A stretch of DNA of 64,000 nt from Candidatus Woesearchaeota archaeon (lineage in GTDB: Archaea > Nanobdellota > Nanobdellia > Woesearchaeales > GW2011-AR4). The stretch lies in assembly GCA_002688775.1 (NCBI GenBank), contig NZDH01000004.1:54543-118542 (forward strand). Reading direction: 5' to 3'. This document shows, in pieces, positions 4,280-61,683 of the stretch; position 1 is the stretch's first letter, and every line of letters begins with the position of its first letter. The translations under genes were made by a program, and so were the position numbers. The notes beneath the pieces are model-generated. The model was not told where the DNA came from. It did not search any database and was given only the letters and a program-made list of their open reading frames with translations.

Positions 4280-5746
4280 ATGAATACAACAAAATTCAAA
4301 TCCACAGTTACAAAAGGAAATAATAGAGGCGCTGGTTTTATTCGCATTCCTTTACAGCTTAGAGATAATTTTTCAATTGGAGATCAATACAAAGTAAGTA
4401 TAGTTTCAAAAATAGAATATTATTCAAAAATAAGAGATTATCGTGGTAAAGGCATATTTGTTCCTACTCAAATTAATATAAAAAATAAATTGTATAAAAA
4501 GGAAGTTAAAGTTAAATTAAAGAAAATTGATGGATTTTATACAAAAGTTGGATCAGAAGGTAGAATCTATATACCTAACTCCTATAATCTTAAAAGAAGT
4601 GATATCATTTCAATAAGTGCTACAATCAAGGGAAAGGAAATAATAAAATATCCAAAAATTTATTTAAGAGAAAAAGGTACTTCAAAAGAATTTATCTTTT
4701 ATTTGAATCCAATTCTTCATAATGAGGAAGTCATTATTAAAGTAAATGAAATTTTTCCAAAGAATAAACTTACTCACTCAAATAAATTATTTAATTTGTT
4801 ATTAAAAGATTTTGATTTTGCAGAAATAGATAAGAACAAAATAATTATATTTTATGGGAATAGAGTTCCTATTATTATAAATAATAATATGGATATTAGT
4901 AATTTAGCTTATTATCTTGGATGTTATTTCGCAGATGGAACTAAAAAAGGAAATCATTGGGGTATTTGTGCTTCGACTTTTGAACTAGCAAATTATTTTA
5001 TTAAAAATCATAATAAAATTATATCCGATTCAAATATTATTTTCTCTTTAACATGTACTAAATATCATTTTGATAACATTGAAAAATTAAGAGATGACTT
5101 AATAAATATTTGGTCAAATAATATTAATTCTAATATTAAAATTCGAAGAGTAAGGATAATTAAAACTCATGCAAAACATTCTCCTAATAGAGGCCCATAT
5201 GGTACTTTATCAATGAATGAACCTCGACAGCTTACTCAGATATATTACAATCGGTTGCTTAAATACTTATTCGATAAGACTATGAAAGAATCAAATAAAG
5301 AATTAGCAACTGATTTTATTTGTGGTACTATGGAAGGTGACGGTTGCGTCAATTCAAAAACACATAGCCATATTTTGATATCTACAAATGCAGAAGAGAT
5401 TAAAATTCTAAAAAAGATATGTGATAATAGTTATCTCAAATCAGGAATACGAGCTTGGGAGGGTAGTAAGAATAGAGTTGATTTATTAATTGGCTCTTTA
5501 GAAATAATCAAAAATATTTCCATATTAAAAGATAAGTTATTTAAATATTACCCAAAAAGAAGAAAGATATTAAAAGAGAGGCTGGCAAATACTGGATGTT
5601 CAAGATTTTTATTAGGAAAAACTAAAAAAACTTCAAATTGGCTTATAGGCCAGTTAAATAATTATGGAATATTAGATGGAAAAGGGAATTTAACCAAGTT
5701 TGGAACTAAAATAAAAAAAGATTTAAAGAGCTTCCTAAGTGACTGA
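4280..5746 (+). CDS. free-standing double-motif LAGLIDADG homing-endonuclease-like protein with ~200-aa N-terminal extension
   Basis: Two LAGLIDADG-like motifs, LAYYLGCYFADGTKKG and FICGTMEGDGCVNSK, lie about 125 aa apart. The protein is extremely N/K/I-rich. The N-terminal GFIRIPLQLRDNFSIGDQYKV might be an AbrB-like swapped hairpin, which is a weak call. Confidence 0.55.
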   Translation: MNTTKFKSTVTKGNNRGAGFIRIPLQLRDNFSIGDQYKVSIVSKIEYYSKIRDYRGKGIFVPTQINIKNKLYKKEVKVKLKKIDGFYTKVGSEGRIYIPNSYNLKRSDIISISATIKGKEIIKYPKIYLREKGTSKEFIFYLNPILHNEEVIIKVNEIFPKNKLTHSNKLFNLLLKDFDFAEIDKNKIIIFYGNRVPIIINNNMDISNLAYYLGCYFADGTKKGNHWGICASTFELANYFIKNHNKIISDSNIIFSLTCTKYHFDNIEKLRDDLINIWSNNINSNIKIRRVRIIKTHAKHSPNRGPYGTLSMNEPRQLTQIYYNRLLKYLFDKTMKESNKELATDFICGTMEGDGCVNSKTHSHILISTNAEEIKILKKICDNSYLKSGIRAWEGSKNRVDLLIGSLEIIKNISILKDKLFKYYPKRRKILKERLANTGCSRFLLGKTKKTSNWLIGQLNNYGILDGKGNLTKFGTKIKKDLKSFLSD

Positions 5747-5748
5747 AA

Positions 5749-6222
5749 ATGCAAATAAGAAAAGCAAGCGCAAATGATGCAAAAGGAATCGCTAATGTCC
5801 TGGTCCAGAGTTATAATATCAAGGATATAGAAGAGGGAATGCAGGTTTTTGAAAATGAGACTGCAAAATTCCACCAATATATTGTTGCTGAAGAAGATGA
5901 TAAAATAATTGGAATTATAACTTGGATTGTGCATGGACTGCCTAAACATCAATTATGCGAGCTTGATAGGATTGCTGTACTGCCTGAATTTAGGGGAAAA
6001 GGTGTTTCTAAAGAATTATTTAATGCATTGGTAGAAAATGCCAAAATATTTTATGAAAGACATAATTCCAAACTAAGAAAATTATATTTGTTAACACACG
6101 ATGATAATGCAAGAGCGCATAAATTCTATGAAAAGCTAGGGTTTAAGCATGAAACAACTTTAAAGCAGCATTATTACAAGGATAAGGACGAGTTTGTTTT
6201 TAGTATGTTTTTTATTGATTAA
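5749..6222 (+). CDS. GNAT family N-acetyltransferase
   Basis: The acetyl-CoA-binding segment RIAVLPEFRGKGVSKELF is GNAT-like, and the size fits a GNAT fold. Confidence 0.7.
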   Translation: MQIRKASANDAKGIANVLVQSYNIKDIEEGMQVFENETAKFHQYIVAEEDDKIIGIITWIVHGLPKHQLCELDRIAVLPEFRGKGVSKELFNALVENAKIFYERHNSKLRKLYLLTHDDNARAHKFYEKLGFKHETTLKQHYYKDKDEFVFSMFFID

Positions 6223-13326: not shown

Positions 13327-14052
13327 TCATCCCTTACTATGCAAGACATATTCCCTTGTGTGAGTAAAATCCAAAGAGAGTCTTGGATCTAAAATTGTTC
13401 TTGTTAATTGGTGTTCAGTTAATACCTGATCTGCTATTGGAAGCTTTCTTATTTTGCCAACCATAGTCGGATCATATCGATAACAATCTATAGCTACTTC
13501 TCTGGTCATAGGCATACCTATAAGGTGTGGTGGAGGTCTTACAAAAAATTCATATTCTATTGTCCCATATCTTTCAGCTGTTTCTTGAAAAGAAACATCA
13601 TCACCACGTTTGTCATCACTTGCGCCCATTAGATTGAGATGTACTAAATTACCCCCCCTATCTTCTATTGCTAACAATCCCCCTCTTGAGTTCTCATATC
13701 TTTCAGGAACATCAGCAACAGTCCAGGCTTCCAAACCAGGTTTAATAATTTGATCTAACATGCATGGATGGGAATGTGAAGCAAAAAGTACAAACCTATC
13801 ATCAGTTGCTAATTGTCGCCTATATGGTAAATTTGCTTGTAAAACTGTAGTCATAATTGATTCCAATCCAGGAATTGCATCCAAAGAGACACTTGTTTCT
13901 GTACCTCCATGAGGATCTGTACATTGTGTAACATATATTTCTGTATCAGAAACTCTTTCTCCAAGTAATAAAATTATATATTCTCTGTCAGTAAGAACCA
14001 TATTTGTCAATGTATCTTTTATCCACTGTGTTATGTATACTGTTTCTACCAT
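13327..14052 (-). CDS. hypothetical protein, compositional outlier, possible JAB/MPN-like HSHP motif
   Basis: The protein is K-poor and T/R/D-rich, unlike its neighbours. LFASHSHP resembles the JAMM core, but the downstream S-x2-D is not conserved. It is convergent with the giant gene. Confidence 0.35.
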   Translation of the reverse strand: MVETVYITQWIKDTLTNMVLTDREYIILLLGERVSDTEIYVTQCTDPHGGTETSVSLDAIPGLESIMTTVLQANLPYRRQLATDDRFVLFASHSHPCMLDQIIKPGLEAWTVADVPERYENSRGGLLAIEDRGGNLVHLNLMGASDDKRGDDVSFQETAERYGTIEYEFFVRPPPHLIGMPMTREVAIDCYRYDPTMVGKIRKLPIADQVLTEHQLTRTILDPRLSLDFTHTREYVLHSKG

Positions 14053-14137: not shown

Positions 14138-14596
14138 ATGACAGTAGAACAACAATTACCACCCCCGCCAAAGAAGCATGAAGGATTCATGAAGTTCGGT
14201 CATTCACATCAGCAGCAGCAAGGGCCTGACATGAGCGGAATAAATTCTGAGATGAATACTTTAGGAAGAAGGTTAAGATTGTTGGAAGAGGGTTTCAGCA
14301 ATCTGAGAAGGTTTTTTCAGGTTACTGAAGAGAATATCATAGCAAAGAACAAGCATTACTCAGCTGAGATCAAAACAGTAACATCGGATATTACTGAATT
14401 AAGAAAAGAAATCCAGGAATTAAAAGATAAGATGCTCCTTATCATCAAAGAACTGCAGACAGTTGCGAGAAAAGATGAGGTCAAGGTTCTTGAGAGATAC
14501 ATAAACCTGTGGAATCCTGTCAGATTTGTAACCCAGAATGAGATTGACGGGATAATCAACGAAGTTCTTGAGAAAAAAAGCAATAGAAAGGTTTAA
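14138..14596 (+). CDS. coiled-coil protein, unknown function
   Basis: Heptad-like LRKEIQELKDKMLLIIKELQ follows a Q-rich N-terminus. Confidence 0.4.
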   Translation: MTVEQQLPPPPKKHEGFMKFGHSHQQQQGPDMSGINSEMNTLGRRLRLLEEGFSNLRRFFQVTEENIIAKNKHYSAEIKTVTSDITELRKEIQELKDKMLLIIKELQTVARKDEVKVLERYINLWNPVRFVTQNEIDGIINEVLEKKSNRKV

Positions 14597-14638
14597 ATAT
14601 GCTCATTAAAAGTATATTTTAAAAAGAGAGGTGAATGA

Positions 14639-15322
14639 ATGGCTTTCTTTAAGTTTGGAAAGAAGAAAGAGGAACCTTTAGATATTCCGATGCAATCTCC
14701 TATGCCGGAGATGCAGCCAAGTAATTCTCCAGTTGAGCAAGTTCAAATGATGAAGCAGCAAGGCTACACCAACAATCAGATTACCCAATCATTGCAAGGC
14801 CAGGGTTACAACAGTTCTCAGATATCCGACGCTATAAGTCAATCAAGCTTAAGCGGCAATTCACAAGGCGGCAAAGAAATGGGAATGCCGGATTACGGGC
14901 AGAGTTACGAGCAGCAACCTTATCCACAACCCCAAGTGCAGGATTTTCAGCCTCCAAGAGAAATTAGTGCACCTGCAACCGTAGATGAAGAAAGAATACA
15001 AGAAGTTACAGAAGCCATTATTGATGAAAAATGGGATGAATTTGCCAATGACATAAGGAAGGTAATAGACTGGAAAGAAAAAAGCGAGGACAGGATAGCA
15101 AAAATAGAGCAGCATTTAATTGATTTAAGCTCGAGGATTGATTCTCTGAGTAAGGGCATTATGAGCAAGATTTCAGCTTATGATCAGAACATTGTGGATG
15201 TGGGGACTGAAATAAAAGCGATGGAAAAAGTTTTCCAGAAAGTGCTTCCAAACTTAACAGAGAACGTGAATAAGCTTGACAGGATTACTAAAGGCTACAA
15301 AGAGACACAAAGAAAAGCTTAA
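14639..15322 (+). CDS. Q/S-rich N-terminus + C-terminal coiled-coil protein, unknown function
   Basis: The N-terminal half is low-complexity and the C-terminal ~110 aa are predicted coiled coil. An SD, gagaggtgaatgaATG, sits upstream. Confidence 0.4.
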   Translation: MAFFKFGKKKEEPLDIPMQSPMPEMQPSNSPVEQVQMMKQQGYTNNQITQSLQGQGYNSSQISDAISQSSLSGNSQGGKEMGMPDYGQSYEQQPYPQPQVQDFQPPREISAPATVDEERIQEVTEAIIDEKWDEFANDIRKVIDWKEKSEDRIAKIEQHLIDLSSRIDSLSKGIMSKISAYDQNIVDVGTEIKAMEKVFQKVLPNLTENVNKLDRITKGYKETQRKA

Positions 15323-15591
15323 TTTCATCTGATTAAAGGTAATTTAGTTCTAGTTAATTTTATTTTTTAAAAAGTATTTTTATTGATAAAAAGAGACCAG
15401 TACAATACAGAAGAAATAAGTGCACAAATAATTCATTAAGTGTTTGTGAACAAATCATTAATGTATCTGTGGCTAATCTCCAGTAACTAAAACTCATTAA
15501 AGAATTAAAAATAATTAAATAAAAAAATAAATCAAATGAAACGAAAAAATCAATATAGAGCGAACGGATTGAAAATAATCCAGAAATATTT

Positions 15592-16089
15592 CTATGAACC
15601 TCTAGAGGCAATCAAACCAATTGTAAAAATAGCTATTGCAAAAATCAAAACCGTGCCAAGAAATTTTGGATGCAGAATGAGATTTATTGATTTTGACAAG
15701 TCTTGTGGATTTTCTTGTTCTCCGATTTGATCTTTTACTTTTACTCCAGCACCGATTATAATTACAACTAAAACAATTACAAAAAATATGACTTTTACCG
15801 AATGGAAAGAATCTAAGTCGCCACCCAACATTTTCAATGCGACATTCAATAAAACTACAAACAAGAAAACAACTGCAATGAAGGGTGCTGTGCTTGCAAC
15901 TACGCTTGTTGCAATAGGCGATATCAATACAAAAATACCCATCAATAACCCTACAATGAGGTAAATGAACTTATTATCGCCAAGAGCTTTTGTCCATAAG
16001 ACAACAGCATATACTACTATCCAAACAAAAAGAAAAACAAATATGCTTGAGAAATACTGCAGACCTGATACATCTAAGAACGTTGCCAT
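15592..16089 (-). CDS. multi-pass membrane protein, paralog C of a three-gene tandem family
   Basis: IFVFLFVWIVVYAVVLWTKALG aligns with the other two paralogs. Confidence 0.6.
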   Translation of the reverse strand: MATFLDVSGLQYFSSIFVFLFVWIVVYAVVLWTKALGDNKFIYLIVGLLMGIFVLISPIATSVVASTAPFIAVVFLFVVLLNVALKMLGGDLDSFHSVKVIFFVIVLVVIIIGAGVKVKDQIGEQENPQDLSKSINLILHPKFLGTVLIFAIAIFTIGLIASRGS

Positions 16090-16115
16090 ATTAGTAAATC
16101 AATATTTATTGGGGC

Positions 16116-16736
16116 TTAATGTCCTCCTTTGCCGCCGCCAAAAAGCTTGCTGAAGTCTGCACCTAATCGGCCCATTGTCGATCTATCTTCTTTTTCTTTT
16201 GAATCGCTTGTGATCCATGCTATTATTATGCCGAATACCAAGAGCATTATAACAACAGCTATACTTTCACTTCCAAAGAAACGCGTCAATGTATTGCCGA
16301 AATAGCCAGACCACCATCCAGCAGCTCCGCCGAATATAAGTATAATTACAATAAAGGAAAAAAATGCAACCCATCCCGGCATAGATAACCCTAAAAATAC
16401 CTTATCCTGGGCAAACACACCTATTAAGATTAGTAGAAAAATTATTGCAACAAGGACTACTGAGATTGATGGCAGGGCGTTGCTTATAATCAACACAGGA
16501 TCAGCATAAGCAGGAAATCTGCCGGTTATATGGGGGATGACAACAAGCAAACCAACCACAATCGAAACGACAATGTTAAGGTTTTTCTTCGCTGCCCCTA
16601 GAATTTCTGATTTTTGAAGGATTGCGTAAATAATAACAAAGATAAGTAAAAAGACAAGTAATACCTCTACCCTCCATCTGTCCAAAAGTAATATGAAATA
16701 ATCAAGCTGATAAGCTGGAGCAGCCATTTTTTGCAC
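16116..16736 (-). CDS. multi-pass membrane protein, paralog B
   Basis: VLLVFLLIFVIIYAILQKSEILG...KKNLNIVVSIVVGLLVV aligns with paralog A. Confidence 0.6.
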   Translation of the reverse strand: MQKMAAPAYQLDYFILLLDRWRVEVLLVFLLIFVIIYAILQKSEILGAAKKNLNIVVSIVVGLLVVIPHITGRFPAYADPVLIISNALPSISVVLVAIIFLLILIGVFAQDKVFLGLSMPGWVAFFSFIVIILIFGGAAGWWSGYFGNTLTRFFGSESIAVVIMLLVFGIIIAWITSDSKEKEDRSTMGRLGADFSKLFGGGKGGH

Positions 16737-16781
16737 CTCTTTATATTAATTATTTTTATATTAGTATATAAACTTTATGAA

Positions 16782-17366
16782 TTATTTATGTTGTGATACT
16801 GCCTTTGATGGTTCTTTTGTAGCATAGACTATGAAAACTACCATCAATCCAAGTAAAATAATAGATCCAGCCAGTACATCACCGCCTCCTGAACCTGAAA
16901 ATCCACCTAAACGCTCCAGCCAGGTCTGACCATCGCTGGTTTTTATTGAATCAAGAAAAATACCAAGGATTGCTATGAATACTATGATCATAAATGTAAT
17001 TTTCCAGCCTCCTTGCAAATGAGTAGGTTCTCCTTCTTTGTGGAAAGAGCCTATTAATAGAAGGAATAGAACGCTGAAGAAAAGGACAATAACAGCTTTG
17101 GCTACAGTTTCATTTATAATTTCCACTAATTCCCTGGTTGCAATCACCAAGAACGCTATTACAAAAGAAGCAATTGCATTAAGGTTCTTCTTCGGAAAAT
17201 TTTTTCCTCCGATTTCTTCAGTGCCCAGAACTTTTGTCTTTTCAAGTATAGCAAAAACAATAGTAAAAACAAGCAGGAAAGGCAATACAACATCAAATAA
17301 TCCAATCTGGTCAAAGAAAGTGATTACTTCTCTAAAAGGAGAATCTGCTGTAACGTGGCTAGTCAT
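16782..17366 (-). CDS. multi-pass membrane protein, paralog A
   Basis: FLLVFTIVFAILEKTKVLG...KKNLNAIASFVIAFLVI aligns with paralog B. Confidence 0.6.
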   Translation of the reverse strand: MTSHVTADSPFREVITFFDQIGLFDVVLPFLLVFTIVFAILEKTKVLGTEEIGGKNFPKKNLNAIASFVIAFLVIATRELVEIINETVAKAVIVLFFSVLFLLLIGSFHKEGEPTHLQGGWKITFMIIVFIAILGIFLDSIKTSDGQTWLERLGGFSGSGGGDVLAGSIILLGLMVVFIVYATKEPSKAVSQHK

Positions 17367-18065: not shown

Positions 18066-20297
18066 ATGAAAAGAACGCATACTTGCGGAGATTTGACTGA
18101 TAAAGATGTCAATAAAAAGGTGACTTTATCGGGCTGGTGCTCTACAAGAAGAGACCATGGCGGTGTAATTTTCATTGACTTAAGGGACAGATATGGATTG
18201 ACACAAGTAGTTTTTGATCCGAGCCATAACCTGGAAAGCCATAAGACTGCAGAAACTTTGAGGAGAGAATATGTAATCACAGTTGAGGGTCATGTCAGGA
18301 AAAGACCTGAAGGCATGGAAAATAAAAATTTACCAACAGGCAAGATAGAAGTTCTTATGGACGAAATCCTTAGCGTCAACAAAGCACAAACTCCCCCTTT
18401 GGAGATTGATGATAACATTGAAGCTTCTGAAGATATAAGGCTGAAATACAGATATCTTGACCTGAGAAGGAATAAGATGCAAAAGCAGCTGATGTTCAGG
18501 CACCAGCTTTCAACTGCAATAAGGGAATACCTAAATCAGCAAGGCTTTATTGAGATTGAAACACCGATGATGATCAAGACTACTCCAGAAGGAGCCAGAG
18601 ACTATTTAGTGCCAAGCAGAATCCATCCTGGAAAATTTTATTCATTGCCGCAATCTCCGCAGATATACAAGCAGATCTTGATGATTGCTGGCTTTGATAA
18701 ATACTACCAGATAGCAAGATGCTTGAGAGACGAAGATTTGAGAACTGACAGGCAGCCAGAGCATACTCAAGTTGATCTAGAGATGTCTTTTGCTGATGTT
18801 GAAGATATATTTCACATTACAGAAGGCCTTATCAAAAATGCTTTCAGAAAACTTCTAAATAGAGATGTGAAAACTCCTTTCAAGAGATTTTCTTATGCCG
18901 AATCAATGGAAAAATACTGCACAGACAAGCCGGACATAAGATTTGGGATGGAATGCTGCACTGTTACAGACATAGTCAAAGATTCTGAATTCAAAGTGTT
19001 TCTTGAAGTCATAAAGAAAGGAATTGTAAAAGTGTTGAATGCAGAGAGTTGCGGAGAAAAATTAAGCAGGAAGCAAATCGACGAGTTAATTGAATTTGCC
19101 CAGCAGAATGGCGCAAAAGGACTTGCGTGGATGAAAGTAACAAAGAATGGATTGGAAAGCAATATTGCGAAGTTTTTTCCTGAAAAAGTGCAGAAAGAAT
19201 TAATCAAAAGAGCTAAAGCAAAGCATGGAGATTTACTGCTGTTTGCAGCTGACAATCCAAAAATAGTAAATGACGTGCTTTCAAAAATCAGGTTAAGATT
19301 AGGAAATTCCTTCGGATTGATAAAGAAAGATAATTTTGATTTTTGCTTTATAACAGACTATCCTATGTTTGAATGGAACGAAGACGAGCAAAAATGGGAT
19401 TTTAGCCATAATCCTTTCACAATGCCAAGGGAAGAATACTGGAAATATCTGGAAACAGATCCAGGCAAGGTAATCTCTTATCAATATGATTTTGTCATGA
19501 ACGGATCTGAACTTTTCTCAGGCTCTGTGCGAAACAATATTCCTGAGATGCAGATGAAAGCCTTCAAAGTTACCGGAATGCCTGAGAATGAGATAAAAGA
19601 AAAGTTTGGGTTTTTGCTTGAAGCGTATAAGTATGGAGCGCCAAGGCACGCTGGATTTGGTATGGGTTTTGACAGATTGGCATCGCTGATGCAGGGGATC
19701 CATGACATAAGGGAAGTTATCGCTTTTCCAAAGAACAAGGCAGCTGAAAATCCGATGGATGATTCGCCAAGCGAAGCAAGCGAAAGACAACTTCAGGAAC
19801 TCCATATCAAACTGGATTTTGTCAAAGATTCAGGAAATGTTGTGTTGGGTAAAATTAAAGATGTTTTGGATAAAGAAAAGATCGAGTATGAAGTTTTAGA
19901 GCATAAAGCTGTTTTCACAAGCAAGGAAGCTGCTCAAATTAGAGGAACAGAATTAAAGCAAGGTTGTAAAGCTTTGGTTTGCAAAACAGAAGAAGGTTTT
20001 ATTCAGGCTGTTGTTAGCGGTGAAAAAGAGCTTGACTTGAAAAAACTGCAGAAAATTACATTATTTAAAAATTTAGAGCTTGCTAATGCCAAAGATGTGA
20101 AAAAGGCAACTGGCTGCAATATAGGAAGTGTTCCACCATTTGGAAATCTACTGGGATTGAAGGTTTATTTCGATAAATCTGTTGCACAAAATGAAATTGT
20201 TGCCTTCAATGCAGGAGCACACACAAAAAGCATTAAAATGAAAGGCAAGGATTTGGTTAAAGTTGTTAATCCTATTGTTGGGGAGTTTTCTAAGTAG
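18066..20297 (+). CDS. aspS: bacterial-type aspartyl-tRNA synthetase (with GAD insertion domain) fused to a C-terminal YbaK/ProX-like aminoacyl-tRNA deacylase domain
   Basis: Class II aaRS motifs and an anticodon-binding N-terminus are present, the GAD domain spans ~aa 290-420, and the canonical AspRS end ERQLQELHIKL is intact. A further ~150 aa carry GCKALVCK and GCNIGSVPPFG, which are YbaK-like K-x-L-x-x-K and G-x-x-x-G-x-x-P-F-G. Confidence 0.8.
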   Translation: MKRTHTCGDLTDKDVNKKVTLSGWCSTRRDHGGVIFIDLRDRYGLTQVVFDPSHNLESHKTAETLRREYVITVEGHVRKRPEGMENKNLPTGKIEVLMDEILSVNKAQTPPLEIDDNIEASEDIRLKYRYLDLRRNKMQKQLMFRHQLSTAIREYLNQQGFIEIETPMMIKTTPEGARDYLVPSRIHPGKFYSLPQSPQIYKQILMIAGFDKYYQIARCLRDEDLRTDRQPEHTQVDLEMSFADVEDIFHITEGLIKNAFRKLLNRDVKTPFKRFSYAESMEKYCTDKPDIRFGMECCTVTDIVKDSEFKVFLEVIKKGIVKVLNAESCGEKLSRKQIDELIEFAQQNGAKGLAWMKVTKNGLESNIAKFFPEKVQKELIKRAKAKHGDLLLFAADNPKIVNDVLSKIRLRLGNSFGLIKKDNFDFCFITDYPMFEWNEDEQKWDFSHNPFTMPREEYWKYLETDPGKVISYQYDFVMNGSELFSGSVRNNIPEMQMKAFKVTGMPENEIKEKFGFLLEAYKYGAPRHAGFGMGFDRLASLMQGIHDIREVIAFPKNKAAENPMDDSPSEASERQLQELHIKLDFVKDSGNVVLGKIKDVLDKEKIEYEVLEHKAVFTSKEAAQIRGTELKQGCKALVCKTEEGFIQAVVSGEKELDLKKLQKITLFKNLELANAKDVKKATGCNIGSVPPFGNLLGLKVYFDKSVAQNEIVAFNAGAHTKSIKMKGKDLVKVVNPIVGEFSK

Positions 20298-21387: not shown

Positions 21388-21963
21388 ATGCTAGAGAAAA
21401 TAAAAGATCTGATGAAAACGAAAGAGGAAATTGACGTAATAAACAAAAACATAAAGGAAAGTACAGAGACTATTTCTGGATTAAAGGATGAACTTGGGAA
21501 ACTGAAGACCAGCCTAGACGATGTCAAGAAAGAGCAGAAGGAATTCCTGACTAGTTTCAAGGACAATATAGGTGTGATAAAAAACCTAAGGGAAGATTTT
21601 GGCAAAGAGCTTTATGAGTTTAAAATGCTGAAAGCCCAGATGCAGAGAAAGATTCTGGATAAGTTTGAAGAAGAGCTGCAAAAAGATTTGGAAGTGAACA
21701 GGGAAGCTTTAAGAAAGGATGTCCAGGATTATAATGAACTGAGGAAAAATGTCAGTGAAGTTGCTTCAAGACTGAACCTGACAACTGAAGAGATAAATAA
21801 ATTCCTGGAAATCAGCAAGAGCATAAAAAAAGAGGATTTTGAGCTGACAAAATTTGCAGGACATCTGCTGGAAATGGACAAGGAAAAGATAGAATTGATG
21901 AGGAAGATTGATATTCTGGAAAGGCTAGTTTCTAAGATAAGAAGAAGGGAAATGATTAGGTAA
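21388..21963 (+). CDS. coiled-coil protein, unknown function
   Basis: K/E-rich heptads run throughout. Confidence 0.4.
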   Translation: MLEKIKDLMKTKEEIDVINKNIKESTETISGLKDELGKLKTSLDDVKKEQKEFLTSFKDNIGVIKNLREDFGKELYEFKMLKAQMQRKILDKFEEELQKDLEVNREALRKDVQDYNELRKNVSEVASRLNLTTEEINKFLEISKSIKKEDFELTKFAGHLLEMDKEKIELMRKIDILERLVSKIRRREMIR

Positions 21964-22294: not shown

Positions 22295-22791
22295 TGAAAT
22301 CCAGCTTATTTTTAATATTATTTTTGGTATTTATAATAGGATGCAACAGCGAGGTAAAAATGAAAATTGCAACAATAGAAACTGATAAAGGAATTATAAA
22401 AGCAGAGCTTTTCACGGATAAAGCACCCATCACAACAACAAATTTCATTGACTTGGCTAATTCCGGATTTTATAACGGATTAACTTTTCATAGAGTTGAG
22501 CCTGGTTTTGTTGTGCAGGGCGGTGATCCTAATGGAGATGGTACAGGGGGTTCTGGAAAAAATATTCAATTGGAGATCCATCAAGACTTAAAGCATGTGA
22601 AAGGTGTGCTGGCAATGGCAAGATCTCAAGATCCAAACAGCGCTTCATCACAATTTTACATTACATTAGCCTCAGCATCTTTTCTTGACGGGCAGTATGC
22701 AGTTTTTGGCAAAGTGATTGAAGGGATGGAATTTGTTGAACAAATTAAAGTTGGGGATAAGATGAACAAAATTACGATAAGTGAAAAATAA
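22291..22791 (+). CDS. secreted cyclophilin-type peptidyl-prolyl isomerase (signal peptide with lipobox-like IIGC)
   Basis: [15 protein letters not shown] is the cyclophilin core. A hydrophobic N-terminus ends in GCNS. It overlaps gatC by 4 nt and gatA by 1 nt. Confidence 0.8.
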
Positions 22792-24236
22792 TGCAATGCA
22801 GTGAATTTGTTGAAAAAGTAAAAAATAATGAGATAGATATTGTTGAGCATACTCATAAAGTCATTGAGGAGTGCAAAAAAATAAACAAGGATTATAATTA
22901 TTTCAATGTTGTCTCTGAAGAACTGGCTTTAGTCCAGGCAAACAAGCTAAAAAAACTGATAAACGGCAAGAAAGCAGATAATAAAAAATTACTGGGAGTT
23001 CCTGTTTCTGTTAAAGACAATATCTGCGTCAAGGGCGTTGAAAGCACTGCAGGCTCCAGAATCTTGAAGGGCTATAAGCCGTTATTCAATGCGACAGCGG
23101 TTGAAAATGCAATAAACCAAGGCGCAATCGTAATAGGAAAAACAAGCCAGGATGAATTCGGCTTTGGGGGCTTTTCTGTCAATGCTGGATTAGGATTTAA
23201 AATTCCTAAAAACCCTTTTGACAAGGAGAGAAGCTGCGGTGGAAGCTCCGGAGGTGCTGGTGGTTTAGCCCAGAAGGCTACTTTCCCCCACATTGCGCTG
23301 GGAGAGAGCACTGGCGGCAGTATTGCATGTCCTGCAAATTTTTGTGGAGTTTTTGGCTTAACACCAACTTATGGAATTGTTTCCAGATACGGCTTGATTG
23401 ATTATGGAAATTCCCTGGACAAGATAGGAACATTAGGAAAAAGTTCTAATGATGCTGGATTATTGCAAGAAGTTATTTCTGGTTATGATGAGAAAGACAG
23501 CACTTCCCTAAATGTTGAAAATGAAAGATATACTGAATACCTGGGAGGATCTGTGGAAGGTTTGAAGGTAGGCATCATAAAAGAAGCGTTTGGAAAGGGA
23601 AATGAAAAAGCAGTAGAAAATCAAGTTTACAAAGGAATTGAAACATTAAAGGAGAAAGGCGTTAAAGCTGAAGAAATATCCTTAGAAATGCCCATAAAAT
23701 ATGGATTAGCAACTTATTACATGATTGCAACTTCCGAAGCCTCTACAAACCTTGCCAAATACTGCGGAATGAGGTATGGAGCTGCTGAGAAATTAAGAGG
23801 GAGCTTTAATGAATATTTCACAAAAGTAAGAAGCAAAAATTTTGGCGATGAAGCTAAAAGAAGGGTAATTCTTGGAACTTTTGCAAGAATGGCCGGACAT
23901 AGAGATGCTTTTTACATTAAAGCTGCCAAAGTCAGGACAAAAATAATCAATGAATACAAGAAGGCTTTCAAACAATTTGATGCCTTGATCAGCCCAACAG
24001 TTCCAATATTGCCTCCGAAGTTTTCTGAAATTGAAAAATTAACGCCATTGCAGAATTACATGATAGACTCAATCCTGGTAGGCCCGAATATTGCTGGTTT
24101 GCCCCATCTAAGCGTGCCAATTGGTTATGATCAGAATCTTCCGGTCGGGATGCTGCTGACAGGAGATCATCTGCAAGAAAAAAAATTACTGCAATTGGGA
24201 AATTTGTTTGAAACAACAAAATTCCACTCATCTTAG
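22791..24236 (+). CDS. gatA: Asp/Glu-tRNA amidotransferase subunit A
   Basis: The amidase signature GGSSGG and the Ser-cisSer-Lys context are present. Confidence 0.85.
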   Translation: MQCSEFVEKVKNNEIDIVEHTHKVIEECKKINKDYNYFNVVSEELALVQANKLKKLINGKKADNKKLLGVPVSVKDNICVKGVESTAGSRILKGYKPLFNATAVENAINQGAIVIGKTSQDEFGFGGFSVNAGLGFKIPKNPFDKERSCGGSSGGAGGLAQKATFPHIALGESTGGSIACPANFCGVFGLTPTYGIVSRYGLIDYGNSLDKIGTLGKSSNDAGLLQEVISGYDEKDSTSLNVENERYTEYLGGSVEGLKVGIIKEAFGKGNEKAVENQVYKGIETLKEKGVKAEEISLEMPIKYGLATYYMIATSEASTNLAKYCGMRYGAAEKLRGSFNEYFTKVRSKNFGDEAKRRVILGTFARMAGHRDAFYIKAAKVRTKIINEYKKAFKQFDALISPTVPILPPKFSEIEKLTPLQNYMIDSILVGPNIAGLPHLSVPIGYDQNLPVGMLLTGDHLQEKKLLQLGNLFETTKFHSS

Positions 24237-24386
24237 ATGGGTGGTTAATTAGCTATATAACATTACATGGAATTTTGTGTGCTCAAAAACAACCCATCAA
24301 TAAGTGGAATTTTGAGTGTCAAAAACCACGCAATTATTATAATATATATAAACATCCACCCATCTATGATGGGTGGTTTTTGACAA

Positions 24387-25802
24387 ATGAAAAAATTCAC
24401 TAGCGATGTTGTCATTGGACTTGAGATCCATGTAGAGCTAGATACAAAAACTAAATTATTTTGTGGATGCTCTAAAAAGGGAGGTGAAGAACCAAACTCA
24501 AGGACTTGTGAAGTTTGTCTTGGCCATCCGGGAAGCAAGCCTGTATTGAACAAAAAAGCTGTTGAATTTGCCCTGAAATTAGGCCTGGCCTTGAATTGTG
24601 ACATCTCCAATGAATTGATTTTCTCAAGAAAATCCTATTTTTATCCTGACATGTCTAAGAATTATCAGATTACGCAATATGAAATCCCTCTTGGCAAGGG
24701 AGGAAATTTAAAATTGAAAGAAGGAAAGGAAATAGGGCTTATAAGAATCCATATGGAGGAAGATCCTGCTGCATTAGTTCATCCTGATGGATTAAAGGAA
24801 GGCTCTTATGTTTTGGTTGATTACAACAGAAGCGGGAATCCTTTGGTTGAGATCGTTACAGAACCGGATTTGACAAGCCCTGATGAAGCAAGGGATTTCA
24901 TGAAGCAATTGATCACTGTCTTAAGCTATCTTGAGATTTTTGACGAGAATAACGGAATAATAAAAGCTGATGCAAATGTCTCAGTAAAAGAAAGTGATTA
25001 TACACGAGTTGAGATAAAAAATATAACTGGATTTAAAGAAATTGAGAGAGCTTTGTTTTATGAAGTTGACAGGCAAAAAGAAGAAATTAAGCAAAGTAAA
25101 AAGGTTGAACAGGAAACAAGAGCCTGGGATTCTGAAAAAGGAGTTACTCTTTCTTTGAGAAAAAAAGAGACTGAAGAAGATTATGGCTATATAATTGATC
25201 CTGACCTGACTGTTACAGAAATTACCGATGAATTAATTGATAAAATCAAGAAAGAAATGCCTGAATTAGCCCAGGACAAAGTAAAGAAATTCATTGAAAA
25301 GCATAAAATCAAGAAAGAATATGCTGAGATTCTTGCTGCGCACAAGCAGCTTGCAGAAATGTTTGAGGATGTTGCAGAGCATATTGATCCTGTTTTAGCT
25401 GCAAAATGGATAAGAGGGGAATTAGTGAGAGTACTAAACTATGCCAAGAAAGAATTGCATGAAGTTGACATCAATAAAAAGCACATGATTGACCTGCTGA
25501 AATTGGTCGAAAGCAAAAAGATAACTGACAATGTTGCTGCAAAATTACTTGAGAAATTGATTGAAAAGCCTTTTGATGTCATTGAACATGTCAAGAAAGA
25601 AGGTCTTGAAGCTGTTTCTGATGTTTCAGAGCTGGAGAAGTACTGCAAAGAAGCGATAAAGGAGAATCCACAAGCTGTTGAGGACTACAAAAAAGGAGAA
25701 AAAAAGGCTTTGAATTTTATTGTTGGTTCTGTGATGAAGAAGACTCAAGGAAAGGCAACTCCTAAAGAGGTTAATGAGATTATTCTGAGATTAATAAGAT
25801 AA
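24387..25802 (+). CDS. gatB: Asp/Glu-tRNA amidotransferase subunit B
   Basis: VIGLEIHVELDTKTKLFCGCS is the GatB N-terminus, and a GatB/YqeY tail follows. Confidence 0.85.
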   Translation: MKKFTSDVVIGLEIHVELDTKTKLFCGCSKKGGEEPNSRTCEVCLGHPGSKPVLNKKAVEFALKLGLALNCDISNELIFSRKSYFYPDMSKNYQITQYEIPLGKGGNLKLKEGKEIGLIRIHMEEDPAALVHPDGLKEGSYVLVDYNRSGNPLVEIVTEPDLTSPDEARDFMKQLITVLSYLEIFDENNGIIKADANVSVKESDYTRVEIKNITGFKEIERALFYEVDRQKEEIKQSKKVEQETRAWDSEKGVTLSLRKKETEEDYGYIIDPDLTVTEITDELIDKIKKEMPELAQDKVKKFIEKHKIKKEYAEILAAHKQLAEMFEDVAEHIDPVLAAKWIRGELVRVLNYAKKELHEVDINKKHMIDLLKLVESKKITDNVAAKLLEKLIEKPFDVIEHVKKEGLEAVSDVSELEKYCKEAIKENPQAVEDYKKGEKKALNFIVGSVMKKTQGKATPKEVNEIILRLIR

Positions 25803-30558: not shown

Positions 30559-31245
30559 CTACTTCTTTAAGAACTTATTAAAATCCGAAAGGTTCTTTTG
30601 GAATTTATTTTTGACCAAATCCTGATATGGGGCCCAGCTCTTTCTGAATATATCGGGATATTTCTCGAAATTGTCTTTAAGAAATTTGGCTGTTTTTGGA
30701 TCTGACATATATCCGGAACCAAAATCTTTTCCTATTTGTTTTTTTAGTTTTTCGATTTCCCTGTCCCCAGTAACTTTTGCTATGATTGAAGCTGCTGCAA
30801 CCAGTTGATAACGTTCAGCTTTATGTTCCAGGATTAAGTTTATTTTTTTATTTTTCAATAGATTTGTTAAATATTCCTTGTAAGATTTAATATTAATGCT
30901 TGGACAGTCTACTATTGATTTATTTGGCTGGAATTTATTTAGAATTTCTGCAGTTTTTTTTGCTTCCAGTTTGTTTAGGTTTAATCCGTCTTGTCCTTGT
31001 ACAGCCCTGTCTATCTCTTCTGGTTGAATGATTATGACTTTGTAGTGTTTTAGGACTTTGATTATTTTATCATATAATTCTTCGCGCTGAACTTTAGTTA
31101 GTAATTTAGAATCTTTAGGTTTTAGAGCTTCTAATTGTTTCATATTTTTTCCTTCGATTAGAGCTCCGCACAGAACCATACTTCCTATGACTGGGCCTCT
31201 CCTGGCTTCATCTATACCGCAAATTAGCATTAAACACCTTTTCAA
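30559..31245 (-). CDS. rnhB: ribonuclease HII
   Basis: ICGIDEARRGPVIGSMV is the RNase HII N-terminal DEDD core. Confidence 0.85.
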   Translation of the reverse strand: MKRCLMLICGIDEARRGPVIGSMVLCGALIEGKNMKQLEALKPKDSKLLTKVQREELYDKIIKVLKHYKVIIIQPEEIDRAVQGQDGLNLNKLEAKKTAEILNKFQPNKSIVDCPSINIKSYKEYLTNLLKNKKINLILEHKAERYQLVAAASIIAKVTGDREIEKLKKQIGKDFGSGYMSDPKTAKFLKDNFEKYPDIFRKSWAPYQDLVKNKFQKNLSDFNKFLKK

Positions 31246-31287
31246 TAAAATAAGAATTTTAGAATTATAAAAATGTTGTGAAAAGAA

Positions 31288-31389
31288 TAGCGGAGGCTAG
31301 ATTTGAACTAGCGACCTATGGGTTATGAGCCCATCGGGCACTCCTGATTGGGCGCCTGGAACAGAGTCCAAACTCTGCCCTACTCCGCT
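31288..31389 (-). tRNA. tRNA-Met(CAT), initiator-like (A1:U72, three G-C pairs closing the anticodon stem), with ~27-nt insertion in the D-arm region
   Basis: The minus-strand read is AGCGGAG-TA-[GGGC...48 nt...GCCC-G]-ATGGG-CTCATAA-CCCAT-AGGTC-GCTAG-TTCAAAT-CTAGC-CTCCGCT-A. The acceptor, anticodon and T arms are canonical. The D-arm segment is about 27 nt too long. Confidence 0.75.
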
Positions 31390-31429
31390 ATAAGTTCTGA
31401 GAATTAAAGTTTGTTTATAAAAGTTATGA

Positions 31430-35157: not shown

Positions 35158-35272
35158 CGCCGAGGGGGAGATTTGAACTCCCGTGCCCTTTCGGACAGAG
35201 GATAAAAACAACTATCCATAAGGGAAAAAGCCTTAGCAATCCTCCGCAATGGCCAGGCTATGCGACCTCGGC
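35158..35272 (-). tRNA. tRNA-Ser(GCT) with canonical-position (37/38) ~30-nt intron and long variable arm
   Basis: The minus-strand read is GCCGAGG...GAGGA-TT-GCT-A-[AGGC...TTTTT]-A-TCCTC-TGTCCGAAAGGGCAC-GGGAG-TTCAAAT-CTCCC-CCTCGGC-G. Confidence 0.75.
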
Positions 35273-42834: not shown

Positions 42835-43770
42835 TCAAGATTGTAGTAGACTGTGTATAAATTCATTAAAATGATCAAAATGGTATGACTTCCTAAATGC
42901 AATCATTATTAATTGAAGTTCTTGATCATCCGATTTTCTATGAAATTCTCTGATTATAGAAGATAATACTTCATCATCATAAAGGTATCCTTCAAATCCC
43001 TCTATCCACCCATAGAAAGCATCGTCGTCCTTTAGGGGAAGACCGGCCATTTCTGCCAGTCTAGAAAAAATATGTTTTCCTAATCTTCTATAGTAATGTT
43101 CAGAACTATCATTCCCTATTTGATCAACTATGCCACTAACAAATTTATTTTCAGCGGATTGTTCCTCTTCTTTCAATTCTTCCTCTAGAATAATTGCTCT
43201 TGCGATGTGATTAATTTTATCACCAACTGATTCATCAATAAAAGATTCACGATTGAAAGTATTATATAGAAACCCCAACTGATGAAAAAGCAATTTAAAA
43301 AGGTAATTTAACAATTCCCCAATATTATCTGGCCTTTTTTTGATTAGATTTATAGTATGAATCGCTAGTTTCAATGTATCGTGTATTTTTCTAAAAATTG
43401 GTATAAGTTTTTTTTGATCGTGATGTTCGATTGCAATAGTTCTTATTAATATATGAGTGTGCTCTTTACTTTCCTCTGATGTTAACCTCCTTAAATCACC
43501 CAATATTTCATGCTCGAGTTTCTCTTCATCCCCAATATCTATTAATTCCTTAGAGATTAATGATGCAATATTATCAAGAACTTCATCTAAAGCATCTAAA
43601 TCCTGCAAAGCTTTCTCAATATTGTTAGGTGAGAAATATTTTGAGAGTTCAGATATCCCTTCGTAATCCTTAAGAGCCCGTCCCCAAATTTGAATTCTCC
43701 TTTCACTATCAATTTTTAATTCTTTTGCTATACTTCCTTTATCTCCAAAAAGATGATTAAATAATCCCAT
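42835..43770 (-). CDS. hypothetical alpha-helical protein
   Basis: The ORF is intact and I recognise no motif. Confidence 0.3.
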   Translation of the reverse strand: MGLFNHLFGDKGSIAKELKIDSERRIQIWGRALKDYEGISELSKYFSPNNIEKALQDLDALDEVLDNIASLISKELIDIGDEEKLEHEILGDLRRLTSEESKEHTHILIRTIAIEHHDQKKLIPIFRKIHDTLKLAIHTINLIKKRPDNIGELLNYLFKLLFHQLGFLYNTFNRESFIDESVGDKINHIARAIILEEELKEEEQSAENKFVSGIVDQIGNDSSEHYYRRLGKHIFSRLAEMAGLPLKDDDAFYGWIEGFEGYLYDDEVLSSIIREFHRKSDDQELQLIMIAFRKSYHFDHFNEFIHSLLQS

Positions 43771-46375: not shown

Positions 46376-48046
46376 TTAAATATCTTTTGGTTTATTATCT
46401 GTTTCACCTACATTCAAAAGATTCTCTTGTTGTTGAGCCTGCTTTTTTCTTTTTCTTATTTTATAAATAATGAATGGTACAAGGAATAGGGCGATAAAAA
46501 TAATTGCAACTAATAATAATAATTTCCTGTTTAATAGATCCAACTTTGATTTTTCTGGCGTTAAATCTTCCACTATTGTGGTGATTTCTTCTTCACTTTC
46601 ATCTTCAGGTTCAGATAGACCTATGATGGTTTCTTCTGTTTCAGTATCTTGAGAACTCTGAACTTCGCTTTTAATAGATTCTGTACCTGAGCTGGGCGGA
46701 GCTGATAATTTTAGCTTAATATCCTTTGTATGATTTATTGATTTTTGGCCTCCATTAATAGTATAATCTGCAGTGACATAAATTTTCAATATGTCCTCGT
46801 TTATACTGGTCAGATCTTTTGGTACAATGAAATTATTGCTCATAGCTATATAAGACTGATTTGGCTTGATTTTGGCTAAATCCTGCTGCACTTCCATATT
46901 GTAAGGGACGTTTAGTCTAGATTTTACGTCTGTAAAATCAAAAAATTTGCTTGGATTTGATATTTTTACAATTACAATGAACTTTTGACCCGGTAACAGC
47001 TCAGAGTATTCTGTAGTCAGATTTATCAATGGTTTTGGATCTACAGCATCTATAACTGTGCTGTTTTGTATGGAATTTCTCAGGTTTTTTATTGTATAAT
47101 CAAAATCTTGTTTTAGTATATAGCCCCCTCCTGCTCTTGCTTCAAGCAACAATGAAAAATTTTTTCCTGTTTCCGGTTTTAGTATTAAATTTTTTTTCAG
47201 ATTGTTATTGCTGTTTGTAAATCCGGATTTATCTTTCAGGACTACTATATGCCTTGGCAGCTCCAGGGTGATGAACGGACTTATATCTTCATCCTCATTA
47301 TTATTTTTCAATGAGAGATTATAGTAAAAAGGATGATTGACCTCAATATATGAATCAATTATTTGATTTATCTCTAATTGTTTTTGCAAGACTGTTATCG
47401 CTACAGATGGTGTTGTCTCTTGTACGCTTTCAACTCCGTTAAAATAGGTAATATTTCCAGCTAAACTGTATGTACCCCCATTATCTGCAATAACAGTTGC
47501 GGTGCATGTATGATCATAATTCGGTTTTAGAAAACCCTTCCATGCAAGTTGATATCCATTAAATGTGCAACCTTTGACTTCTTTTATTATAAACGAAGAA
47601 AGATCTAAATTGTAATTGATACTGGTAACTTCCAAATTAGTTGGATTTGTCAGAGTTATAGTCAGATCAGTTGATTCTCCTTGCAATAATGTGCCAGATT
47701 TTACTTTGCTATCAACTGACAAACTGCCTGTGAGTTTTGAAATGGTCACATCAACTTCATAATAAAACACATAAGTCGTTATATTCTTATGAGAAAAATT
47801 AGCGCCATTTATGCATACCCTATATTCAATATTTGACTTGCATGCACCATTGTCTATAATCATGTTTGTAGTAGGTGTTTGTGCAAAAGCCTTGTTGAGG
47901 TTTTGGTCGTACTTGAACTTGAATATTAATCCATCTGCTGATACATCGGCATCTGTTATAACCTTGCCTGAGAAGATTTCAGTTGCTGCAGCAACAAATT
48001 GTGATAATAATATAAATAACAAAAAATATACTACCTCTTTTTTCAT
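46376..48046 (-). CDS. cell-surface protein: signal peptide, beta-rich ectodomain, Ser/Glu-rich stalk, C-terminal TM anchor + basic tail
   Basis: The N-terminal MKKEVVYFLLFILLSQFVAAA is signal-like. The C-terminal LLLLVAIIFIALFLVPFIIYKIRKRKK is a TM anchor with a basic tail. Confidence 0.6.
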   Translation of the reverse strand: MKKEVVYFLLFILLSQFVAAATEIFSGKVITDADVSADGLIFKFKYDQNLNKAFAQTPTTNMIIDNGACKSNIEYRVCINGANFSHKNITTYVFYYEVDVTISKLTGSLSVDSKVKSGTLLQGESTDLTITLTNPTNLEVTSINYNLDLSSFIIKEVKGCTFNGYQLAWKGFLKPNYDHTCTATVIADNGGTYSLAGNITYFNGVESVQETTPSVAITVLQKQLEINQIIDSYIEVNHPFYYNLSLKNNNEDEDISPFITLELPRHIVVLKDKSGFTNSNNNLKKNLILKPETGKNFSLLLEARAGGGYILKQDFDYTIKNLRNSIQNSTVIDAVDPKPLINLTTEYSELLPGQKFIVIVKISNPSKFFDFTDVKSRLNVPYNMEVQQDLAKIKPNQSYIAMSNNFIVPKDLTSINEDILKIYVTADYTINGGQKSINHTKDIKLKLSAPPSSGTESIKSEVQSSQDTETEETIIGLSEPEDESEEEITTIVEDLTPEKSKLDLLNRKLLLLVAIIFIALFLVPFIIYKIRKRKKQAQQQENLLNVGETDNKPKDI

Positions 48047-61575: not shown

Positions 61576-61683
61576 TGGGCCTGCTCAGATTTGAACTGAG
61601 GACCAATCGATTATCAGTCGATCATTCTAATTGTCTAGTTAACCGGCAATTTGCTGGCAACTTCCAGACTGAACTACAGGCCC
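61576..61683 (-). tRNA. tRNA-Ile(GAT) with ~35-nt insertion in the D-arm/D-loop
   Basis: The minus-strand read is GGGCCTG-TA-GTTC-[AGTCTGG...52 nt...GAAT]-G-ATCGA-CTGATAA-TCGAT-TGGTC-CTCAG-TTCAAAT-CTGAG-CAGGCCC-A. The acceptor, anticodon and T arms are canonical. Confidence 0.7.

Follow-up and report, generated by a model that had tools for sequence, protein, structure and literature searches.

The initiator tRNA locus and its host

The window, by which is meant the whole stretch of 64,000 nucleotides of woesearchaeotal DNA that was analysed, carries an archaeal initiator tRNA-Met (tRNA-iMet) gene on its minus strand, between a pseudouridine synthase gene and an RNase HII gene. The gene can be read directly from the sequence as a 102-nt pre-tRNA (Table 1). 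In reverse complement, the first half reads AGCGGAG UA GGGC AG AGUUUGGACUCUGUUCCAGGCGCCCAA UCAGGAGU GCCC G, followed by AUGGG CUCAUAA CCCAU AGGUC GCUAG UUCAAAU CUAGC CUCCGCU A as the second half. A preliminary description, made from the letters of this DNA, had recognized an initiator-type tRNA-Met with canonical acceptor stem, anticodon arm and T arm, and all of these are indeed present: the acceptor stem, also read directly, has 7 bp and includes A1:U72, the anticodon arm AUGGG/CUCAUAA/CCCAU has the consecutive G:C pairs G29-31:C39-41 and a CAU anticodon (in the window sequence and in the Rfam alignment of an intron-less orthologue, L023), and the T arm is regular. CCA is absent from the gene, and the length after splicing is 75 nt.

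The acceptor and anticodon stems are 48 nt apart, compared to 21 nt in the intron-less orthologues, much as the preliminary description had estimated. The insertion of some 27 nt that it had placed inside the D arm is a single one of exactly 27 nt, located in the D-loop between tRNA positions 15 and 16. The same 102-nt sequence is found, with no differences, in three independently assembled contigs (L001-L003), so that an assembly artefact can be rejected.

Table 1. Window coordinates of the tRNA-iMet gene, its intron and the other features discussed in the text
Feature	Position	Strand	Basis or remark
Initiator tRNA-Met gene	31288-31389	minus	Direct reading; spliced form is tRNA-Met(cat) by ARAGORN; matches intron-less orthologues
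5' exon, tRNA positions 1-15, AGCGGAGUAGGGCAG	31375-31389	minus	Alignment with intron-less orthologues
27-nt intron AGUUUGGACUCUGUUCCAGGCGCCCAA, site 15/16	31348-31374	minus	Comparison with 75-nt orthologues; bulge-helix-bulge geometry
3' exon, tRNA positions 16-73, UCAGGAGUGCCC...CUCCGCUA	31288-31347	minus	Orthologue comparison
Anticodon CAU	31325-31327	minus	Sequence, Rfam, ARAGORN
Helix H, exon strand GGGC (D-stem 5' strand, positions 10-13)	31377-31380	minus	Pairing kept in 7/7 alleles
Helix H, intron strand GCCC (mimic of the real D-stem 3' strand)	31350-31353	minus	GCCC, GCCU or GUCC in the alleles
5' splice-site bulge, A14 G15 / A, cut after G15	31374-31376	minus	3 nt, closed by H and h'
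3' splice-site trinucleotide, A A / U16, cut after second A	31347-31349	minus	Open side, without outer helix
Inner hairpin h', 7 bp GUUUGGA/UCCAGGC, loop CUCUGU	31354-31373	minus	Structure scan and allele alignment
TTTATAAA box, -32 to -25, putative archaeal TATA box	31414-31421	minus	Octamer recurs at orthologous loci
T-rich tract UUCUUUUC, directly after discriminator base, putative terminator	31280-31287	minus	T-rich tracts follow most orthologous genes
RNase HII gene	30559-31230	minus	223 aa
tRNA-Ser(GCU) gene	35158-35272	minus	ARAGORN intron mode and T-arm/acceptor scan only
tRNA-Ile(GAU) gene	61576-61683	minus	Directly downstream of tRNA-Asn
D-loop insertion in tRNA-Ile(GAU)	61631-61663	minus	33 nt, about position 19/20
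Aspartyl-tRNA synthetase fusion gene	18066-20297	plus	743 aa
GatA and GatB genes	22791-25802		After the aspartyl-tRNA synthetase fusion gene

The G+C content of the window is about 35%, and its archaeal markers include aIF5A, HerA/Mre11, Hel308, a PINA ATPase, a Cdc6-type AAA+ ATPase and deoxyhypusine synthase. The RNase HII has a match at 100% identity that bears the NCBI name Candidatus Woesearchaeota archaeon, and its close homologues are named Woesearchaeota or Nanoarchaeia. Contigs with the tRNA-iMet locus come from Tara Oceans and other marine metagenomes. The RNase HII match places the host, a marine Woesearchaeota archaeon, in the Archaea and in the DPANN group (Nanobdellati).

The TTTATAAA octamer lies 21-33 nt upstream of the gene in nearly all of 30 distinct orthologous loci, intron-containing and intron-less ones alike. 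It is a putative promoter element, just as the T-rich tract UUCUUUUC is a putative terminator, and the gene is probably expressed and functional. The neighboring RNase HII is short: among the matches listed (P0003-P0120), nearly all homologues at 70-76% identity have 289-297 aa. In a pairwise comparison with one of these (P0111, 289 aa), the extra ~66 aa form a C-terminal extension that is absent from the protein of the window.

Orthologous genes and intron positions

A metagenome scan with the pattern of the 5' exon yielded 33 further loci. Five of these are 75-nt intron-less genes, representing four distinct sequences (L023, L028, L046 and L048), which differ from the joined exons of the window in the T-stem and, in some cases, also at acceptor pair 6:67 or at anticodon-stem base 42. 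The D-loop AGUCAGGAGU occurs in all intron-less orthologues and is contiguous in the window. In L018, which has the same gene order and an RNase HII that is 71% identical, the same tRNA has an uninterrupted D arm, GGGCAGUCAGGAGUGCCC. This sequence, shared by L018 and the four intron-less sequences, equals the window exons joined at 15/16. When a genome collection was scanned for the pattern of the 3' exon, the matches were all bacterial tRNA-fMet genes or came from Vulcanisaeta, with no relative among them.

Across the orthologous tRNA-iMet genes, six intron positions are in use (15/16, 29/30, 37/38, 43/44, 53/54 and 59/60), and each gene has between none and three introns, every one with a bulge-helix-bulge (BHB)-like motif. 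Loci with other introns are found among L018-L054, such as L022, where the gene is 142 nt long, L026, L051, L032 and L049; positions 53/54 and 59/60 are occupied in L026 and L051. The introns at 53/54 carry the splice-site signature GG|A ... AA|U, which they have in common with the D-loop introns. The L034 gene (at about 5675-5800 of that contig, minus strand) has two introns, at 15/16 and 53/54, and its anticodon loop reads GGGCCCAUAACCC, with C33 in place of the near-universal U33.

In four other relatives, an open reading frame (ORF) of the LAGLIDADG family is located directly upstream of the RNase HII gene (L015, 1212-1931; L016, 809-1528; L017, 1212-1931; L021, 732-1916), in the place that the pseudouridine synthase and tRNA-iMet genes have in the window. 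No tRNA was found in these four contigs by ARAGORN, by Rfam or by an anticodon-arm pattern; the same three checks missed the disrupted copy in L018, which was found by reading the intergenic sequence.

Detection of the gene by tRNA finders

How do tRNA finders treat such a gene? In its default mode, ARAGORN reported no gene at the tRNA-iMet locus. When the 27 nt were deleted from the sequence, it called a 75-nt tRNA-Met(CAU); with the 27 nt kept, there was no call. The Rfam tRNA model scored the window copy at 30.3 bits, with a gathering score of 29, in a partial local alignment that skipped the D arm and borrowed the GGAG of the D-loop as an acceptor strand. The intron-less orthologues, whose exons are alike and differ mainly in the T-stem, scored 61.7-64.4 bits over their full length, and four other alleles with a D-loop intron were undetected by this model. 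A chance insertion can be rejected, because excision restores the ARAGORN call and because the intron-less orthologues score full-length and the interrupted copy only partially. The preliminary description had also considered that a covariance model might fold the region as a normal tRNA in a different register; no model did so, and all that Rfam produced was this partial match with the D arm deleted.

Other registers were drawn nevertheless. GCCC occurs twice in the precursor, so that a D-stem can be drawn with either copy, and ARAGORN with its intron option (-i) returned a gene at 31287-31390. On the one hand, this allows a reading with two short introns, one in the D-loop (about 15 nt) and the other at 25/26 (about 14 nt); on the other hand, it might point to another tRNA identity. 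Both are extremely improbable. Using the first GCCC as the real D-stem strand implies a D-loop AGCCAGGC that is found in no orthologue, and the two-intron reading is rejected because the intron-less orthologues show AGUCAGGAGU and no BHB can be drawn for the second short intron. As to identity, the ARAGORN call shifts with the length of the flanks, from tRNA-Cys(gca) on the whole window to tRNA-Leu(cag) on a 141-nt excerpt, and it takes the perfectly conserved Met anticodon arm as a variable arm. These calls, each of which includes a 15-nt intron, are unstable and were rejected as false; they illustrate how such tRNA genes get mis-annotated.

For annotation, the tRNA-iMet and at least one further tRNA of the window are thus invisible to ARAGORN and barely visible to Rfam. 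Since finders miss such tRNAs, essential tRNAs would be counted as absent from genomes of this lineage. The non-canonical intron models of tRNAscan-SE were trained on Crenarchaeota, Euryarchaeota and Thaumarchaeota (PMC8450103). It has been noted that tRNA prediction is incomplete for new DPANN genomes, and such false gaps among the essential tRNAs were already suspected there (PMC5829648).

Intron boundaries and the bulge-helix-bulge fold

The precursor was scanned for any 4-bp helix with cuts 2 nt to the 3' side of each strand, plus an outer or an inner helix. In the top-ranked solution, there is a 4-bp central helix (H), a 7-bp inner helix (h') and no outer helix. Helix H is formed by the exon GGGC (precursor nucleotides 10-13) and the intron GCCC (37-40), with four of four pairs; the bulges are AGA (14-16) and AAU (41-43), and the inner helix pairs nucleotides 17-23 with 30-36. 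This geometry predicts removal of precursor nucleotides 16-42, which is the intron interval of Table 1. The cuts, after G15 and after the final AA of the intron, coincide with the boundary obtained from the intron-less orthologues, which is itself unique because the bases that flank the junction differ.

The outer helix has 0 bp in all seven alleles, with A9 opposite C17, and the motif is therefore of the relaxed HBh' form rather than the strict hBHBh'. It departs from strict hBHBh' introns in its site as well, 15/16 instead of 37/38. Of the bulge-helix-bulge expected at the junctions, the central helix, the closed 5' bulge and the inner helix are thus found, and the outer helix that would close the 3' bulge is not. 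The suggestion that this is a non-canonical D-loop intron of the bulge-helix-bulge class is borne out all the same, in that the junctions can be folded into a BHB-like motif whose conservation is accompanied by covariation.

An exact fit to the BHB rule at both boundaries also bears on two quite different origins of the 27 nt, a self-splicing group I or group II intron and a scar left by integration of a mobile element or virus. Integration often takes place at tRNA genes, and LAGLIDADG ORFs adjoin the RNase HII gene in some relatives. However, 27 nt are far too few for a ribozyme intron, the core of which would need hundreds of nucleotides; no Rfam intron family matches at the locus; and terminal repeats are absent. 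Either origin is hardly credible.

In terms of thermodynamics, the HBh' fold is not the most stable one for the window sequence, at -40.1 kcal/mol vs. -44.4 kcal/mol for an alternative with two hairpins, a gap of 4.3 kcal/mol. It is the minimum-energy fold for the allele of L034 and lies 1-6 kcal/mol above the minimum for the other alleles. The minimum-energy fold of the window precursor is stable and cloverleaf-like, with the two hairpins replacing the D arm, and could be taken to mean that the 27 nt are retained, giving a mature tRNA with an enlarged D arm and an extra hairpin. This is highly improbable: the other alleles do not share the two-hairpin fold, the D arm is normal in close relatives, and the parts that are conserved (the decoy GYCC strand, AG|N and AA|U) would be purposeless in a retained arm. 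Moreover, if the insertion were kept, G15 would be set apart from G18/G19, and the conserved tertiary core of the tRNA would be disrupted.

Conservation of the HBh' fold was followed in seven distinct alleles of the 15/16 intron, of 20, 21, 27, 27, 28, 29 and 29 nt, from the window, L034, L043, L025, L038, L027 and L052. They were aligned with MAFFT, and eight pairs were tested. The decoy strand of the intron is complementary to GGGC in 7/7 alleles, the only changes being from G-C to G-U, on the intron side. The 5' trinucleotide is AG|A or AG|U and the 3' trinucleotide AA|U in every allele. The inner hairpin differs in sequence from allele to allele; it has 7 bp in the window, and every other allele has 3 or more contiguous bp. 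Overall, 96.4% of the cells for the eight pairs are paired, and there are compensatory changes, with both sides changing, at all four of the h' pairs tested, which are those nearest to the bulge. When the partner columns were slid by 1-3, pairing fell to 36-52%. None of 500 column shuffles matched the observed covariation score, a figure that overstates independence because the seven alleles are related sequences, and that is not to be read as a probability. The compensatory pattern in the 15/16 intron is plain all the same.

The compensatory changes in seven alleles, together with an insertion geometry that fits precise excision, make a decaying pseudogene very unlikely. According to that explanation, the 27-nt insertion would have inactivated the gene, and a working copy would be found elsewhere in the genome. 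The standard finders make no call here, and a second copy may lie outside the analysed stretch. On the other hand, one initiator tRNA gene is usual per archaeal genome, the exons are intact, the promoter-like box and the T-tract are conserved, and the order pseudouridine synthase - tRNA - RNase HII is kept, as in L018.

Proposed splicing and the search for the endonuclease

The analysis shows a tRNA-iMet gene with exact intron boundaries, a conserved and covarying fold and a conserved promoter-like box, as well as its phylogenetic setting. Very probably, it is a functional, single-intron initiator tRNA-Met gene of a marine Woesearchaeota (DPANN) archaeon, spliced by the tRNA splicing endonuclease EndA and a ligase. 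That EndA would make the cuts and that the exons would then be joined, as well as the enzyme type, is inferred by analogy with known systems. Transcription from the putative TATA-box promoter would yield the 102-nt precursor, in which the D-stem 5' strand GGGC would pair with the decoy GCCC of the intron instead of its true partner, forming the 4-bp central helix of the HBh' motif. The 5' splice site AG|A would then be presented in a 3-nt bulge between the central helix and the 7-bp intron hairpin, and the 3' splice site AA|U in an open stretch, 2 nt to the 3' side of the other strand of the helix. Both sites would be cut by EndA, which would necessarily be of broad specificity, and the exons would be joined by an RtcB-type ligase. 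After splicing, the true D-stem GGGC:GCCC and the D-loop AGUCAGGAGU could form, giving a normal 75-nt initiator tRNA.

Neither endA nor rtcB turned up in the window or in the 10 kb that adjoin it on either side. A search of 50 window ORFs against Pfam and NCBIfam revealed no tRNA_int_endo domain, nor did the domain annotations of the genes called in the 10-kb flanks. (The 50 ORFs comprise one short ORF and all those of at least 150 aa, except RNase HII, CorA, HerA, two aminotransferases and a further two, which overlap with larger genes.) With M. jannaschii EndA as the query, validated against PDB 1a79, tblastn and phmmer searches of the window and of L001-L054 (six-frame ORFs for phmmer) gave only noise; one weak match in L034 is antisense within another gene. 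The endA search covered about 84 kb of a genome that is expected to be on the order of 1 Mb.

Which type of EndA would be expected? Relaxed motifs were reported to need (alpha-beta)2 or epsilon2 enzymes (PMC3239211), but specificity was later tied to inserted loops rather than to subunit type (PMC5829648). Strict alpha4 and alpha'2 enzymes are reported to cut substrates without an outer helix poorly. Broad-specificity EndA in DPANN is reported to be an alpha4 enzyme with an extra loop (L3) or an epsilon2 enzyme, and not (alpha-beta)2 alone (PMC5829648, PMC3239211). Several DPANN lineages in which many tRNA genes are disrupted were reported to have the alpha4 EndA with the L3 loop, in an analysis that included one Woesearchaeota genome (PMC5829648). 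To look for a heterotetrameric endA alone, as the preliminary description proposed, is too narrow, given these alpha4-L3 and epsilon2 enzymes. For enzymology, the fold predicts that the EndA of this mesophilic archaeon, with its small genome, accepts a D-loop substrate that lacks the outer helix.

Other interrupted tRNA genes in the window

Five tRNA genes lie in the window, and three of them are interrupted; the proportion is three of six if one adds tRNA-Thr(CGU), which has no intron and is located just outside the left end. In tRNA-Ile(GAU), the D-loop insertion is associated with an HBh'-like motif that combines GUCU:AGAC and an inner helix of 5 bp with the bulges GG|A and AA|U. When spliced, the resulting 75-mer is identified as tRNA-Ile(gat) by ARAGORN; unspliced, the gene is missed by ARAGORN and given a partial match of 25.9 bits by Rfam. 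Short HBh' introns with the shared signature RG|A ... AA|U are seen at 19/20 in tRNA-Ile and, in tRNA-iMet, at both 15/16 and 53/54. The third gene, tRNA-Ser(GCU), which was detected only by ARAGORN in intron mode and by a scan for the T arm and acceptor, has a 30-nt insertion beside the anticodon loop, for which no clean BHB could be drawn.

Elsewhere in the window, there is a bacterial-type aspartyl-tRNA synthetase fused to a C-terminal domain resembling the YbaK/Cys-tRNA(Pro) deacylase, followed by the GatA and GatB genes. Five consecutive ORFs of 152-227 aa (14138-17366) have zero Pfam matches, and no Pfam assignment was obtained for the ORFs at 4280-5746, 13327-14052, 21388-21963, 42835-43770 and 46376-48046 either.

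Relationship to known tRNA introns

Elements of this kind are already published, as are their mechanism, their presence in D-loops and their enrichment in DPANN. No concept is changed by the present gene, a correct and neat finding that would not surprise a specialist. In the searchable literature, no description was found of an initiator tRNA with a D-loop intron at 15/16 or of the marine Woesearchaeota lineage, nor of this gene or of a six-position turnover in one initiator tRNA. The set of orthologues, with 0-3 introns at six positions in near-identical exons, provides compact data on intron gain and loss, and would be useful for training intron models outside Crenarchaeota and Thaumarchaeota. 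The preliminary description held that non-canonical introns are known only in a few archaeal lineages, which understates the published range: they are found in Crenarchaeota, Thaumarchaeota, Nanoarchaeota and Korarchaeota, and further in Methanopyrus kandleri, ARMAN-2, other DPANN, Asgard and Hadesarchaea.

The pre-tRNA-Glu(UUC) of M. kandleri has an HBh' intron at 20b/21 in the D-loop, and the mature tRNA was seen by RNA-seq (PMC5829648). Both this intron and that of the window are short, non-canonical D-loop introns with a relaxed HBh' motif. However, the M. kandleri intron is found at a different site, in an elongator tRNA that also has a canonical intron, whereas the present one is the single intron of an initiator tRNA, at 15/16. 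M. kandleri is a hyperthermophilic euryarchaeon with an (alpha-beta)2 EndA without specificity loop; the host here is a mesophilic marine DPANN archaeon.

A D-loop intron is also present in pre-tRNA-Thr2(UGU) of Aeropyrum pernix, where it is spliced in vivo and in vitro and EndA alone suffices (PMC3241643). It needs a broad-specificity EndA, and the narrow enzyme of A. fulgidus hardly cuts it (PMC3241643). According to its authors, the A. pernix intron has a canonical BHB at a non-standard position (PMC3241643), unlike the present motif, in which the outer helix is missing. A. pernix is a crenarchaeon, and its EndA has the Crenarchaea-specific loop, in contrast to the DPANN host considered here.

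Closer in phylogenetic terms are ARMAN-2 and other members of the DPANN superphylum, in which many tRNA genes are likewise interrupted at non-canonical positions (PMC3239211, PMC5829648). The sites 53/54 and 59/60 of the ARMAN-2 tRNA-Pro(GGG) recur in the tRNA-iMet orthologues L026 and L051, and the EndA of ARMAN-2 is a three-unit epsilon2 enzyme (PMC3239211, PMC5829648). DPANN lineages with a loop-bearing EndA show increased disruption of their tRNA genes (PMC5829648).

The Thermoproteales are known for tRNA genes with multiple introns, for which intron transposition has been proposed (Sugahara 2008 and Fujishima 2010, as reviewed in PMC4090602). There, too, orthologous genes vary in the number and position of their introns, as they do here within one tRNA family, with 0-3 introns at six positions. 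Sites 29/30, 53/54 and 59/60 are included in the list of non-canonical sites quoted in that review; 15/16 and 43/44 are absent from the list as quoted, which ends with "etc." (PMC4090602). The Thermoproteales belong to a different phylum, and the hosts here are mesophilic. Tentatively, and with rather more doubt than confidence, it may be proposed that marine and groundwater Woesearchaeota are a second, independent hot spot of tRNA-intron proliferation like the Thermoproteales, in which HBh' introns would be in flux, by gain, loss or movement, across at least six sites in an essential, presumably single-copy tRNA-iMet gene, and the EndA would not be heterotetrameric but, for example, an alpha4 enzyme with the DPANN L3 loop. 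If true, this hot spot would amount to a natural experiment, at the level of populations, on how tRNA introns spread.
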